Virus record (IMG/VR): IMGVR_UViG_2671180254_000003 | DNA: 5,862 bases | Reading direction: 5' to 3' (one strand) | From: a virus | Lineage: Duplodnaviria; Heunggongvirae; Uroviricota; Caudoviricetes | In this document: in pieces, positions 2,490 to 5,862 of the stretch | Layout: each line of letters starts with the position of its first letter | Numbering within the stretch: position 1 is the first letter of the stretch | The notes under the pieces: model-generated | Databases searched by the model: none | Seen by the model: only the letters and a program-made list of their open reading frames with translations | Told to the model about the DNA's origin: nothing | Position numbers and translations under genes: made by a program

Positions 2490-3176
2490 ATGACCCCAAT
2501 AAACATATTTATGACAGTTGCTGATTTCAAACGGCCCAAATTGGAGCTCCCAAACGGGGCAAACAAACTACTACTGCACTCTTGCTGTGCTCCATGTTCC
2601 GGTGAGGTGATGGAGGCGCTTCAGGCCTCGGGAATCGACTACACCATCTTTTTCTACAACCCGAACATTCATCCTCAGAAAGAGTATTTAATTCGTAAGG
2701 ATGAGAATATTCGCTTTGCTGAACAACACGGCGTGCCGTTTATTGATGCTGATTACGACACAGACAACTGGTTTGAACGAGCCAAAGGAATGGAATGGGA
2801 GCCCGAACGAGGGATCCGTTGCACCATGTGTTTTGACATGCGTTTTGAGCGGACAGCGCTGTACGCCGCTGAAAATGGTTTCAGTGTGATCAGCAGTTCA
2901 CTGGGCATTTCACGCTGGAAAAATATGCAGCAGGTTAACGACTGTGGGCGGCGAGCCGTCGCGCATTATCCGGGCATGGTGTACTGGGATTATAACTGGC
3001 GCAAGCAGGGCGGCTCGTCCCGTATGATTGAAATCAGCAAGCGCGAAAAATTCTATCAGCAGGAATATTGTGGCTGTGTGTATTCTCTGCGCGATACCAA
3101 TCTACACCGCAAATCTCAGGGACGCCCTCTTATCAAAATTGGTCAACTCCACTACGGTAAAGAAGAGAAGGAGTGA
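2490..3176 (+). CDS. queH: QueH-like epoxyqueuosine reductase family protein (DUF208, Fe-S enzyme)
   Basis: 228-aa ORF with the DUF208/QueH hallmark motifs as recalled from memory: [45 protein letters not shown]. Start could be ATG 2490 or 2511; neither has a clear SD. Confidence 0.8.
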
Positions 3177-3227: not shown

Positions 3228-3321
3228 GACTGCGGGTGCTTGAGGCTATCTGCTTCAGGCATGAACACCAAAAGGCAGATAGAGAAAAGCCCCAGTTAAC
3301 ATTACGCGTCCGGCAAGACGC
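3211..3321 (+). promoter_or_regulatory. hok-type mRNA 5' leader, copy 1 (tac-like element plus conserved stem-loop); downstream body lost in assembly gap
   Basis: About 90 nt closely similar to 5355..5460 (CTGCGGGTGCTTGAGGCT...AGAGAAAAGCCCCAGTTAACATTACGCGTCC.GCAAGACGC). Contains stem CTATCTGC/GCAGATAG (3246-3253 / 3275-3282). Runs directly into the N run. Confidence 0.6.
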
Positions 3322-3574
3322 NNNNNNNNNNNNNNNNNNNNNNNNNNNNNNNNNNNNNNNNNNNNNNNNNNNNNNNNNNNNNNNNNNNNNNNNNNNNNNN
3401 NNNNNNNNNNNNNNNNNNNNNNNNNNNNNNNNNNNNNNNNNNNNNNNNNNNNNNNNNNNNNNNNNNNNNNNNNNNNNNNNNNNNNNNNNNNNNNNNNNNN
3501 NNNNNNNNNNNNNNNNNNNNNNNNNNNNNNNNNNNNNNNNNNNNNNNNNNNNNNNNNNNNNNNNNNNNNNNNNN
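3322..3574. other. Assembly gap (253 N)
   Basis: Uninterrupted run of N. ORFs 3236..3577 and 3255..3701 in the track are artefacts of translating N. Confidence 0.99.
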
Positions 3575-3694
3575 TAATTTTTGTCTGGATAATCGGAAAA
3601 ATAATTGAGCCAGTTATTGAATTGTATAACGACGTGGTATGGGCGTCATTCAACACACTGCACAATAAAATTAATCCGTATAAGGAAAGCTGAT

Positions 3695-4060
3695 ATGGCA
3701 CTGACGAAAAAACAACGTGCAGAACTGCGCATGAAGTTCGGTGGTCGCTGCGCTTATTGCGGCTGCGAACTTGGCGAAAAGTGGCATGCAGACCATGTAA
3801 AACCGGTCATTCGTTTTGATGGAAATATGCTTCACCAGGAACGTGACGATATATCCAACATGGTACCAGCATGCCACCCATGCAATCTGCACAAGCATTG
3901 CAGTAGCCTGGAAGATTATCGACGAATTATCAGTGATGGTCGTCGTGAATTCCTTGCGTCCGGGAAAGGCAAAGCGCTGGTTCGTATGGGATTGGTTGAA
4001 ATGAAATCTGACCCGGTTGTGTTCTGGTTTGAAAAATATCAAGAAGGGGCTACGGCATGA
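3695..4060 (+). CDS. HNH endonuclease
   Basis: 121-aa ORF from ATG 3695 with SD AAGGA (3682-3686). HNH motifs CAYCGCEL, WHADHVKPV, VPACHPCNLHK. The track's longer version starts at TTG 3605 with no RBS. Confidence 0.85.
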   Translation: MALTKKQRAELRMKFGGRCAYCGCELGEKWHADHVKPVIRFDGNMLHQERDDISNMVPACHPCNLHKHCSSLEDYRRIISDGRREFLASGKGKALVRMGLVEMKSDPVVFWFEKYQEGATA

Positions 4061-4722
4061 CCACTATTACCAAAGAGCGACTGCAATGGCTGGCTAACAT
4101 TTCTGGCCGCGATGATATTGACGATATAGACGGCGGTGAAATTCGTGAACTGGCGCTTATCGCTCTGGCATCACTGGAAGCAGAGCCTGTAGCGGAATGC
4201 ATTGTTGAAGATGGGGGCATGTGTATTGACGGGTTCGGTGAGTATGTGGGTCACTCGCTGCCTGATGGAATGCATGAGCTTTATGCTGCCCCGCGAATGC
4301 GACAACCTGATGGATGGAAAGCCGTAGCTGTAGCGTGGAAGGTGACGTTTACTCAAGTTGACCAGGAATCTAATACGTTCACTGCTATATATTTTGACAA
4401 AGCGGAAGTTGAGTGTTGGGTACGACTGCATAAAGCATGTGATTTTCGGGCAGATATAACACCGCTTTACGCAGCGCCGGCAGTGCCGGTTGCAGTAAAC
4501 GACGACATGGCTTACGCATTCCATCACGCACTGTCAGATTCATCGCTTGGCTCTGATGAAATCGAAGAAATTAAAACCGGTTTGCGTGCTGCCTTTGCCA
4601 ACGTCACTATCCAACCAGAGCCGATAGTGCCGGATGAAATCGGGCCAAACGATAGTAATACGTTTGATTATGTTGATGGCTGGAACGCCTGCCGCGCTGC
4701 CATGCTTAAGGGAGATAAATAA
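4057..4722 (+). CDS. Hypothetical phage protein (221 aa) with two LYAAP motifs
   Basis: ATG 4057 overlaps the HNH stop (ATGA), indicating translational coupling. Acidic N-terminus; LYAAP at codons 75-79 and again about 60 residues later (nt 4279-4293 and 4465-4479), encoded with different codons. Confidence 0.8.
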   Translation: MTTITKERLQWLANISGRDDIDDIDGGEIRELALIALASLEAEPVAECIVEDGGMCIDGFGEYVGHSLPDGMHELYAAPRMRQPDGWKAVAVAWKVTFTQVDQESNTFTAIYFDKAEVECWVRLHKACDFRADITPLYAAPAVPVAVNDDMAYAFHHALSDSSLGSDEIEEIKTGLRAAFANVTIQPEPIVPDEIGPNDSNTFDYVDGWNACRAAMLKGDK

Positions 4723-5087
4723 TGATTAATCGAACCAAACTGGAGCACATTCTCGAATATGCCAGGCAGCAGAAATGTATTGGGCAACTTTGTAAAATTC
4801 CACCAGGAGATATGGTTGAAATCGTGGAAATGGCCATGCGTAAGGCTGGCAACTCTCCGGTAGCTCCGGCTGGCTGGATAAGCTGTAGTGATGCAGTTCC
4901 TGCTGAATATTGCGATGTGATTCTTCTCGATGATCTCGGGAATGTATTCCCCGGTTCCTGGGATAAGGTTTTTTGCCCCACTCGTGGCGGGAATAAGATG
5001 GCTTTTGTGGACAAAGACGGCGTTGAAGTAGAGAGCTCAACTCACTGGATGCCGCTACCGGAACCACCGCAGGAGGTGAATCAATGA
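4722..5087 (+). CDS. DUF551-family prophage protein
   Basis: 121-aa ORF; start overlaps the upstream stop (TAATG) with SD GGGAG upstream. C-terminal WISCSDAVPAEYCDV...STHWMPLPEPP matches the DUF551 pattern. Confidence 0.85.
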   Translation: MINRTKLEHILEYARQQKCIGQLCKIPPGDMVEIVEMAMRKAGNSPVAPAGWISCSDAVPAEYCDVILLDDLGNVFPGSWDKVFCPTRGGNKMAFVDKDGVEVESSTHWMPLPEPPQEVNQ

Positions 5088-5167
5088 CCTGGCCTGAGGC
5101 ATTCACCACGGTAGGAATTGCGATGGCGGTGGCGCTGGTGGTGTATTCGATTTGCCGTTGGGGTTAA
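5084..5167 (+). CDS. Small hydrophobic peptide (27 aa, MTWPEAFTTVGIAMAVALVVYSICRWG), predicted single transmembrane helix
   Basis: Not in the ORF track (too short). ATG 5084 overlaps the DUF551 stop (ATGA) and is preceded by a strong SD AGGAGG (5071-5076, 7-nt spacing). Stop TAA 5165-5167 is followed within about 10 nt by an intrinsic terminator. Confidence 0.55.
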   Translation: MTWPEAFTTVGIAMAVALVVYSICRWG

Positions 5168-5172
5168 CAAAC

Positions 5173-5203
5173 AAAAACCCCGGATTGATGGTCCGGGGTT
5201 TTT
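5173..5203 (+). terminator. Rho-independent terminator (possibly bidirectional)
   Basis: A5 (5173-5177), stem CCCCGGA (5178-5184) / TCCGGGG (5192-5198) with 7-nt loop, then T5 (5199-5203). Confidence 0.8.
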
Positions 5204-5354
5204 GAAGGAAACAAAACAGAAACAGCAATTGCCGTTACCTGTTGTTACCATGGCAAGTAAACGTATCTCAGGCGAGCGCATTGCGCCGTTCTGACGCAGA
5301 TAAACTAGCCTGGATAGATGGTGCTGGCAATAAAAAATAGCGTTTTCTTATCGG

Positions 5355-5484
5355 TGTCGGTAAGATTGCTGCGGGTGCTTGAGGCTGTCTGCCTCGGGTA
5401 TGTCACTGTAAGGCAGACAGAGAAAAGCCCCAGTTAACATTACGCGTCCTGCAAGACGCTTAACATTAATCTGAGGCCCAATCT
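5355..5484 (+). promoter_or_regulatory. hok-type mRNA 5' leader, copy 2 (putative -10 TAAGAT at 5361-5366, tac-like element 5369-5386, stem-loop 5385-5420, mok upstream region)
   Basis: tac-like CTGCGGGTGCTTGAGG is complementary to the 3' fbi-like sequence at 5749-5764. Stem CTGTCTGCC/GGCAGACAG (5385-5393 / 5412-5420). Leads into the mok/hok reading frame. Confidence 0.7.
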
Positions 5485-5697
5485 ATGTCTCACAAATGTA
5501 GGTTAGCCTCTTACGTGCCGAAAGGCAAGGAGAAGCAGGCTATGAAGCAGCAAAAGGCGATGTTAATCGCCCTGATCGTCATCTGTTTAACCGTCATTGT
5601 GACGGCACTGGTAACGAGGAAAGACCTCTGCGAGGTACGAATCCGAATCGGCCAGACGGAGGTCGCTGTTTTCGTAGACTACGAATCTAGAGAGTAA
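5485..5697 (+). CDS. mok: Mok-like regulatory reading frame (70 aa), in frame with and containing hok
   Basis: ATG 5485 opens the only frame open across the hok start. Length matches chromosomal Mok-type frames (recalled from MokC, which is an N-terminally extended HokC). Whether it is translated is inferred. Confidence 0.5.
   Translation: MSHKCRLASYVPKGKEKQAMKQQKAMLIALIVICLTVIVTALVTRKDLCEVRIRIGQTEVAVFVDYESRE
5542..5697 (+). CDS. hok: Hok/Gef-family type I toxin (HokD/RelF-like small membrane protein, 51 aa)
   Basis: MKQQKAMLIALIVICLTVIVTALVTRKDLCEVRIRIGQTEVAVFVDYESRE shows the Hok family signature (TM helix, LTRK.LCE.R...EVA.F..YES). SD AAGGAG sits 8 nt upstream of ATG 5542. Confidence 0.9.
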   Translation: MKQQKAMLIALIVICLTVIVTALVTRKDLCEVRIRIGQTEVAVFVDYESRE

Positions 5698-5704
5698 GAG
5701 TGAC

Positions 5705-5728
5705 CAGGCGGGAGAGTAATCTCCCGCC
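5705..5728 (+). other. Stable hairpin just after the hok stop (GGCGGGAGA-GTAA-TCTCCCGCC)
   Basis: Perfect 9-bp GC-rich stem with GNRA-type tetraloop; no immediate U-run. Probably a 3' UTR structural element of the hok mRNA. Confidence 0.5.
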
Positions 5729-5743
5729 ACCTTTGATGTGTCA

Positions 5744-5765
5744 GGCATCCTCAACGCACCCGCAC
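5744..5765 (+). promoter_or_regulatory. fbi-like (fold-back inhibition) element complementary to the 5' tac-like element
   Basis: CCTCAACGCACCCGCA (5749-5764) pairs with TGCGGGTGC-TTGAGG (5370-5384): 9 bp plus 6 bp around a single bulge. This is the 5'-3' pairing architecture of hok mRNAs. Confidence 0.6.
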
Positions 5766-5770
5766 TTAAC

Positions 5771-5789
5771 CCGTTTCGGCGGTTTTTTT
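5771..5789 (+). terminator. Possible 3' end of hok transcript (short GC stem plus T7 run)
   Basis: CCG-tttc-GGCGG followed by TTTTTTT (5783-5789). Stem is weak; the IS1 end abuts immediately. Confidence 0.3.
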
Positions 5790-5862
5790 GGTAATGACTC
5801 CAACTTATTGATAGTGTTTTATGTTCAGATAATGCCCGATGACTTTGTCATGCAGCTCCACC
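5790..5862 (-). mobile_element. IS1 insertion sequence, terminal 73 nt including inverted repeat; element continues beyond window end
   Basis: GGTAATGACTCCAACTTATTGATAGTGTTTTATGTTCAGATAATGCCCGATGACTTTGTCATGCAGCTCCACC matches the IS1 terminus as recalled. The minus strand encodes the InsB C-terminus. Confidence 0.9.
5805..5862 (-). CDS. insB: IS1 transposase InsB, 3' end (partial, continues beyond window)
   Basis: Minus-strand translation gives ...VELHDKVIGHYLNIKHYQ followed by stop (TAA, complement of 5805-5807). Confidence 0.8.
   Translation of the reverse strand, partial: VELHDKVIGHYLNIKHYQ

Follow-up and report, generated by a model that had tools for sequence, protein, structure and literature searches.

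A probable 27-codon membrane-peptide gene at the end of the Ea22-type accessory block of Escherichia and Shigella prophages

The small open reading frame and its annotation

The window analyzed here, the whole 5,862-nucleotide (nt) stretch of IMG/VR virus record IMGVR_UViG_2671180254_000003, is a lambdoid prophage segment in which a small open reading frame (ORF) of 27 codons overlaps the end of a gene for a DUF551-domain protein. We consider it very probable that this small ORF is a real gene for a membrane peptide. The Kyte-Doolittle mean of the predicted product is 2.11 over residues 6-24, a run of 19 residues that fits one transmembrane (TM) helix, with Glu5 near the N side of the helix, Arg25 near its C side, and Trp3 and Trp26 at both interfaces. 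The initiation signals are all in place in the window: an AGGAGG Shine-Dalgarno (SD) sequence, a 7-nt spacer and an ATGA overlap between the start codon and the stop of the upstream gene. A first-pass annotation, made from the letters of this stretch, had described a 27-residue hydrophobic peptide with one predicted TM helix, a strong SD at 7-nt spacing, a start overlapping the upstream stop and a terminator right after the small-ORF stop. Each of these features is borne out at the positions collected in Table 1, the terminator hairpin of the window beginning 5 nt downstream of the stop.

Genes of fewer than 30 codons fall below the usual length limit of gene callers. The first-pass annotation had argued for a real gene missed through length cut-offs, and this view holds up, given the coding evidence below and the fact that both RefSeq annotations made with the Prokaryotic Genome Annotation Pipeline (PGAP) and the phage annotations that we inspected skip the small ORF. 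It is unannotated in the three RefSeq/PGAP genomes inspected and in the phage records ArgO145, 933W, TH18, 666R9, Stx2 phage II, POCJ13, YYZ-2008 and PhiR12_1; the feature listed under the match in those phage records is the upstream gene, whose last four bases overlap the small ORF. The exact peptide is present in GenBank from a few submitters, as a ‘bacteriophage protein’ (E. coli O111:H11 CVM9545), as ‘hypothetical protein FORC28_2400’, as AOM45384.1 and under other entries, and it was found on 79 contigs in the protein collection. Related peptides are entered in GenBank from E. coli, E. albertii, Shigella sonnei and Salmonella, none of them with a functional name.

Searches of Pfam, NCBIfam, PHROG, PADLOC and PDB with the peptide gave matches at noise level only (DUF883_C, PTR2, KdpF, phrog_4612) and no function. 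The KdpF model (TIGR02115) reached 14.7 bits, where its cut-off is 26.85, in an alignment of only 12 residues, and PHROG 4612, a group of unknown function, was matched weakly (E=0.019, 16.3 bits) with peptide residues 1-23 aligned to profile positions 33-54 of 57. Pfam gave no match of the peptide to HOK_GEF (PF01848), the model to which the neighboring ORF at 5485-5697 matches with E=1.7e-21. In Rfam, no family reached threshold on or antisense to the small ORF, and the sub-threshold matches on the minus strand were driven by the terminator hairpin. The papers on the exo-xis region and Ea22 (PMC7093339, PMC8614690, PMC10834534) do not mention the small ORF. The peptide is already public as an unnamed hypothetical protein, while the family models, solved structures, RNA families and searchable papers contain no description of it.

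The 84-nt ORF was matched in 1290 of 5426 complete E. coli genomes (~24%), at 1745 places and with up to five copies per genome; these copies are nearly all chromosomal and share 80-100% identity with the ORF of the window. It is also present in 94 phage records, including 933W, VT2-Sakai, Min27 and many Stx1 and Stx2 phages. The recurrence of the same 27-codon frame is far beyond chance. In K-12 MG1655, the Rac and Qin prophages contain no homologue by tblastn and motif regular expression (DLP12, e14 and CPS-53 were outside this search), so these two prophages offer nothing for K-12 ribosome-profiling data sets to test.

Conservation, borders and flanking elements

Homologues were gathered by degenerate DNA patterns and by in-frame upstream extensions of the window sequence, and IMG/VR was scanned both with an N-anchored pattern (ATGACNTGGCCNGARGCNTTY) and with a pattern on the C-terminal codons (GTNTAYTCNRTTTGYCGNTGG). 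Among the matches listed, intact 27-codon frames make up 115 of the 118 full-length-similar copies of the N-anchored scan; the other three are two stop-loss variants extended to 38-40 amino acids (aa) and one variant shortened to 20 aa, while two copies fall below the similarity cut-off, one lacking 6 nt in frame and the other rearranged. The C-anchored scan, likewise among the matches listed, gave 144 copies, with 135 intact, three in-frame deletions, three stop-loss extensions and three disrupted frames (one with TAG at codon 3, two that lost 1 nt). Protein databases also contain length variants, which are in-frame expansions within the TM segment, such as ...GIAMAMAMAMAMAVAL.... Four such entries (P0077, P0084, P0065 and P0079) carry (AM)n repeats and VA/LV duplications in the TM helix, which yield versions of 29-35 aa, and the GCGATGGCG repeat appears prone to slippage.

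Codon-position changes were counted by parsimony on a neighbor-joining tree of 78 unique intact sequences. In codons 8-19, which are free of both anchors, the changes at positions 1/2/3 number 34/25/64 (chi-square p=3.8e-5), and over codons 2-27 they number 55/40/113. The pairwise Nei-Gojobori ratio of nonsynonymous to synonymous differences per site (pN/pS) is 0.33 in frame, versus 1.03 and 1.26 in the other forward frames, and divergent pairs have pS of 0.41-0.67 with pN of 0.09-0.19, a ratio of 0.13-0.30. Divergent members of the family, at ~50-65% identity, keep the 27 codons together with W3, P4, E/D5, A6, Y/F21, R25, W26 and G27, and mostly also G11 and A15; examples are MNWPEAFTAVGVAIAVAFILYSLFRWG in phage YYZ-2008, where the ORF lies between a DUF551-Ea22 gene and xis/int, MSWPDAIVTLGMVFAVAFVVYSICRWG and MNWPEAFAITGVAMAIAFLVYVICRWGKNVRRD. 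Purifying selection acts on the peptide sequence, not merely on the DNA. The first-pass annotation had suggested examining related prophages for conservation of the frame and for the pattern of synonymous and nonsynonymous substitution, and had named frame-disrupting changes in homologous regions as the outcome that would speak against a gene; the frame turned out to be conserved in both scans, the substitutions to be biased toward synonymous ones, and disruptions to be rare, at 3 of the 144 C-anchored copies listed. Two antisense ORFs on the minus strand, at 5081-5281 and 5103-5228, were considered as genes and rejected, as the sequence past the small-ORF stop is unconserved between phages and the pN/pS of their frames exceeds 1.

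The junction with the upstream gene is constrained as well. In the C-anchored copies, for which the search pattern leaves codon 2 free, this codon is only ever ACC (Thr), AGC (Ser), AAC or AAT (Asn) or ATC (Ile), with 0/8/4 changes at bases 1/2/3. Restriction to A-initial codons preserves the upstream TGA, and therefore the upstream gene, the small ORF and their junction all appear to be under selection. A GGAGG-type SD is kept in every upstream context of the small ORF, the start codon is ATG or GTG, and it normally overlaps the upstream stop, as ATGA or TGATG.

On either side of these signals the phages differ. In the six other records compared, homology between phages begins at the small-ORF ATG, or in some cases at a 10-12 nt block with the ribosome-binding site (GGTGAATCA), and ends at the TAA or TGA stop, with unrelated flanks beyond. 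At least four unrelated upstream C-terminal ends were seen, each ending in the overlap: ...PEPPQEVNQ (DUF551), ...RNGLISVEDVLR, ...NDLKNIEQEVNR (933W L0139 type) and ...AAMLKKKGMNQ. The block GGAGGTGAATCA-ATG accompanies the small ORF behind three different upstream genes, and one copy (L183) lies 36 nt behind an unrelated gene, yet has kept ~25 nt of the DUF551 tail with the SD. Directly past the stop, at least ten distinct downstream junction classes occur, among them the terminator of the window, other terminators, hok/sok and another gene 7 nt away; convergent genes are also among the downstream elements in other phages. The small gene behaves as an independent mosaic module bounded by its own ribosome-binding site and stop codon.

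In the window, the gene order runs from YdaU-like and DnaC-like replication genes through a DUF977 protein, a QueH homologue, an N-masked stretch and an HNH endonuclease to a 221-aa Ead/Ea22-type protein, the DUF551 protein, the small ORF, the terminator and a hok/sok locus. The 221-aa protein has no Pfam match and has ...ALASLEAEP... and ...YVDGWNACRAAML... segments in common with Ead/Ea22-like or EaA proteins of other phages, and an identical copy of the DUF551 protein is common in Shigella. Ea22_V2, an Ea22 variant found in Stx phages, has DUF551 as the signature of its C-terminal domain (PMC10834534), and the small ORF therefore stands at the close of an Ea22-type accessory block. In an early operon, this Ea22/Ead/DUF551 block normally has the small ORF as its last cistron; its place is past the replication genes in the window, and in YYZ-2008 and PhiR12_1 it is found between ea22 and xis/int. 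Among complete genomes, E. coli FDAARGOS_944 comes closest, at 99.8% identity over 4700-5300 and over 3575-5789, and its prophage continues with NinB/NinE/Q-like genes, tRNAs and a lysis cassette.

Table 1. Features around the small ORF of the window
Feature	Position	Strand	Remarks
221-aa protein, Ead/Ea22 mosaic group	4057..4722	+	ATGA overlap with the DUF551 gene; same accessory block
DUF551-domain protein, 121 aa	4722..5087	+	Pfam PF04448, E=3.4e-19; PGAP name ‘DUF551 domain-containing protein’
Shine-Dalgarno AGGAGG	5071..5076	+	7-nt spacer (tgaatca) to the small-ORF ATG
ATGA start/stop overlap	5084..5087	+	Small-ORF ATG 5084-5086 over DUF551-gene TGA 5085-5087; translational coupling
Small ORF	5084..5167	+	27 codons; ATG 5084, TAA 5165-5167; product MTWPEAFTTVGIAMAVALVVYSICRWG; predicted single-pass membrane peptide
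Symmetric intrinsic-terminator hairpin	5172..5204	.	A5-stem-loop-stem-U5; 13 pairs, 7 GC; ends the transcript segment
hok/sok type I toxin-antitoxin locus, complete	5373-5697	+	~200 nt past the small-ORF terminator
sok	5373-5547	+	Rfam RF01794, 118 bits
mok-like ORF	5485-5697	+	Overlaps the hok coding sequence
hok coding sequence	5542-5697	+	Pfam HOK_GEF, E=1.7e-21

The hairpin behind the small ORF has a predicted folding energy of -23 kcal/mol on the plus strand (z=-5.0 versus shuffles), where it is followed by UUUUUG, and of -20.7 kcal/mol on the minus strand. A consensus terminator scan lists it on the minus strand only, because the flanking A5/U5 tracts lengthen the stem; it is a symmetric terminator of the bidirectional type. 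It belongs to the arrangement of the window and not to the family, as a terminator-like hairpin was found in 38 of 115 copies by a simple scan that misses some long-loop hairpins, and in the commonest arrangement the small ORF runs straight into the hok/sok locus. In one viral contig (L071) the hairpin is precisely missing while the flanking spacer is retained (TAACAAAC joined to AAAACAGAAAC...), so that the hairpin acts like an insert that can be separated from its surroundings.

Of the 143 copies with enough flank, 101 (71%) are followed by a same-strand hok/sok locus no more than 1.5 kb downstream. The 5′ box of the hok mRNA is less than 50 nt from the small-ORF stop in 66 of the 143, and at 150-300 nt, the type found in the window, in 21 more. 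This association may come from a common location where the block ends, or from a functional tie. A 44-aa protein of the NCBI Third Party Annotation set (P0101) is a natural chimera, MTWPEAFTTVGIAMA-LVTRKDLCEVRSRTGQTEVAVFTAYESEE, in which the small peptide's N-terminal half runs on into a C-terminal portion of Hok, and is annotated by NCBI as a Hok family toxin; it apparently arose via a deletion between the neighboring genes at their common A-L-V stretch.

Outside the family, seven distinct sequences on IMG/VR contigs (GC 0.45-0.67) match the 21-nt N-terminal pattern. Five of them (L017/L079, L044, L055, L089 and L121) are ORFs of 27-34 codons that combine MTWPEAF with a hydrophobic helix and a basic end, and the 34-aa one recurs in the protein collection, on 260 contigs. 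An SD is present in most of the five, and in most the start overlaps an upstream ORF, as ATGA (which the search pattern forces) or TGATG. These ORFs may represent a wider N-terminal motif family, or convergence.

Interpretation and rival explanations

Our preferred reading, which we hold to be likely, is that the small ORF is a genuine gene for a 27-residue single-pass inner-membrane microprotein of lambda-like (Stx-type) Escherichia/Shigella prophages, with a mode of action along the following lines. The peptide would be made along with the upstream Ea22-type protein, early after infection or induction, and its flanking charges (Glu5 versus Arg25) and tryptophans (Trp3, Trp26) suggest that it would insert with its N-terminus out and its C-terminus in. 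The conserved small residues Gly11 and Ala15, and the strongly kept Y-S-I-C-R-W-G end, point to action inside the membrane via helix-helix packing; the packing partner could be a host membrane protein or the peptide itself, and the likely target would be a host membrane protein or local envelope permeability. In the window the mRNA segment would then stop at the intrinsic terminator, where in most other phages hok/sok would come directly next. As for the specific step, a membrane-embedded modulator made early in lytic development is the most likely mechanism that sequence and analogy offer, and we propose it tentatively, as a possibility.

Several points weigh against this reading. Translation and membrane insertion are predicted here from the sequence, and partner binding through the small-residue face is proposed from features of the peptide and by comparison with small membrane proteins of other kinds. 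The search for ribosome-profiling or proteomic records gave none, the peptide strings being absent from the searchable literature and from the supplements of a paper on small genes of enterohemorrhagic E. coli and of an Enterobacteriaceae microproteome preprint. Both IMG/VR scans were anchored on conserved codons, and their counts are samples among the matches listed. A pN/pS of ~0.3 is moderate, not extreme, with many of the first- and second-position changes being singletons, and the antisense frame that shares the wobble position has, as is to be expected of it, a pN/pS of 0.295, similar to the in-frame value; that frame is ruled out in the window only because it is not open across the small ORF, the sole ORF there starting at 5109 and running away. 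The family is also narrow: the GTDB species representatives with a strict C-terminal match are E. coli and Shigella flexneri, with two paralogous copies each. Two further GTDB matches, on short contigs labelled Segatella and Xanthomonas, are probably contamination.

One rival explanation is a type I toxin, similar to Hok, Ldr, TisB or Ibs, which would depolarize or permeabilize the inner membrane and be silenced by an RNA antitoxin or by mRNA structure. Its size, hydrophobicity and aromatic/basic C-terminal end would be similar to those of our peptide, which moreover adjoins a bona fide hok/sok locus, on the same strand and within 1.5 kb in the 101 of 143 copies given above, and is joined to a Hok C-terminus in the natural fusion P0101. 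We nevertheless regard a toxin as unlikely. There is no sigma-70-like site on the plus strand in 4000-5862, hence no promoter of its own was detected; a long structured 5′ untranslated region is lacking, and an exposed consensus SD with a stop overlap is the opposite of typical translational silencing. No antisense RNA family was matched, the sequence antisense to and downstream of the small ORF is unconserved between phages, and the peptide shows no similarity to toxin models in Pfam, NCBIfam or PADLOC. Antisense to the small ORF, the promoter scan was likewise negative, the single minus-strand site in 4000-5862 being at 4140-4112, ~950 nt upstream. The first-pass annotation had remarked, in general terms, that such peptides often act as membrane toxins or modulators. 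Since the small gene is coupled in a polycistronic early operon and no promoter of its own or antisense RNA was detected, an accessory membrane peptide that is co-translated suits its anatomy better than a type I toxin does. Two other phage gene classes were considered and rejected. A holin, antiholin or spanin would not be expected outside the lysis cassette, and the holin, lysozyme and lysis-protein genes of the near-identical prophage lie ~4 kb further downstream, past the Q-like antiterminator region and the tRNAs; a lambdoid ‘moron’ (promoter-gene-terminator) would have the terminator seen in the window, but a promoter was not found and the small ORF is coupled to the upstream gene.

The remaining alternatives place the function in something other than a free peptide. 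The frame could work only in cis, its peptide being irrelevant, if a ribosome terminating 5 nt before the hairpin modulated termination, mRNA stability, Rho polarity or hok read-through: the geometry of the coupling is kept strictly, the 66 of 143 copies mentioned have the 5′ box of the hok mRNA within 50 nt of the stop, and in the window, where 5 nt separate the stop from the terminator stem, the left arm would be covered by a terminating ribosome. We consider this quite improbable, as the amino-acid sequence is kept (pN 0.09-0.19) in pairs whose pS of 0.41-0.67 is near saturation, and the downstream elements are wholly different between phages (terminator, hok/sok, a gene 7 nt away, convergent genes), so that no single cis target is conserved. 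It is very improbable that the open frame is incidental to a non-coding linker, a recombination boundary or RNA element between lambdoid mosaic modules. An 84-nt block of 90-99% identity with unrelated sequence on both sides is indeed what a module-exchange linker would look like, but the third-position excess, the frame-specific pN/pS and the in-frame insertions and deletions are those of a coding sequence, the block borders coincide with the ribosome-binding site/start and stop codons, and no Rfam family was matched on the plus strand. The conserved block may also be a recombination site between modules, as a side effect of the conserved gene. We give hardly any credence to a membrane-anchor extension joined to the upstream Ea22/DUF551 protein by ribosomal frameshifting. 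Upstream of the ATG, the small-ORF frame of the window stays open over 17 codons, and databases contain frameshift-type fusion calls (P0038, P0102, P0109, P0112), but such calls are rare, come from single clusters and would fit sequencing errors or mutational frameshifts; the at least four unrelated upstream C-terminal sequences have no common slippery site, one copy lies 36 nt behind an unrelated gene, and the ATG/GTG start and strong SD are conserved.

As a membrane microprotein, the peptide can be set beside several known systems. In E. coli, larger membrane proteins are modulated by small single-pass ones of the inner membrane, among them AcrZ, MgtS, MgrB, KdpF and CydX. Our peptide is like this class in being shorter than 50 aa, with one TM helix, no other domain and few conserved positions, in having been missed by annotation pipelines, and in its predicted helix-helix contact in the membrane; it differs in that there is no sequence relationship and that the small ORF is phage-borne, coupled in an early phage operon and confined to Escherichia/Shigella prophages. 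With the type I toxins (Hok/Gef PF01848, Ldr, TisB, Ibs, ShoB) it shares a short hydrophobic peptide, an aromatic/basic C-terminal end and, in 71% of copies, a hok/sok neighbor, whereas it has a coupled, consensus SD and no detected antisense RNA, own promoter, translation-blocking leader or toxin-model homology. In lambda, the post-ea22 position of the small ORF is presumably occupied by ea8.5, although the lambda sequence itself was not checked for this. [quoted passage not shown] In contrast, none of the exo-xis products described in those papers is a membrane protein.

Phage-encoded single-pass membrane proteins of fewer than 50 aa are a well-known and expected class, and the present finding is useful more than surprising. 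Its main value lies in annotation and in the reading of Ea22/exo-xis genetics in Stx phages. The small gene is present in ~24% of complete E. coli genomes, often in several prophages of each, and in the reference Stx phages 933W and VT2-Sakai, yet all the RefSeq/PGAP and phage annotations inspected lack it, as do the exo-xis papers cited above; ea22/exo-xis deletion and plasmid constructs may therefore have carried or removed a membrane peptide, possibly confounding Ea22-type phenotypes. It is also a clean comparative-genomics case of a gene of fewer than 30 codons, for which a model or curated entry could enter annotation pipelines.

A bolder reading, which we think improbable, would make the peptide the founding member of a phage microprotein family that perturbs or gates the host inner membrane in early Stx/lambdoid development and is tied to hok/sok and to the Ea22 lysis-lysogeny module. 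If this were true, the peptide could underlie phenotypes of cloned Ea22-region fragments, such as ClyA release by ehly or the effects of exo-xis plasmids on induction, and the identical MTWPEAF N-terminus on other short TM ORFs would indicate a wider N-terminal motif family. Phage-borne ehly1/ehly2 ‘enterohemolysin’ determinants, like the BlyA holin of Borrelia, reportedly release ClyA from E. coli K-12, in work that reference lists attribute to Oscarsson et al. in 2002. The Ehly2-associated protein is Ea22-like (PMC7093339; also the annotation notes in Stx2 phage II), which suggests that the cloned ehly determinants derive from the same region as the small ORF.

Other observations in the window

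Further upstream, the prophage early region encodes a full-length epoxyqueuosine reductase homologous to QueH at 2490-3176 on the plus strand (PF02677, E=1.9e-65), and this phage-borne gene of the queuosine pathway may deserve separate attention. The prophage of FDAARGOS_944 has an IS3-family element at roughly the QueH position instead. A partial second sok match lies at 3234-3293 on the plus strand (53.9 bits, just below the gathering score; model positions 1-58) and runs into the run of N that extends from after ~3320 to ~3575, so that a second hok/sok-like locus is probably present under the mask near 3320-3575. At the ends of the window, 1-61/67 and 5790-5862 match short sequences at other E. 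coli and Shigella loci, outside the prophage homology, with the first 61-67 nt matching in inverted orientation, which suggests a repeated, possibly insertion sequence-related element at the window edges.

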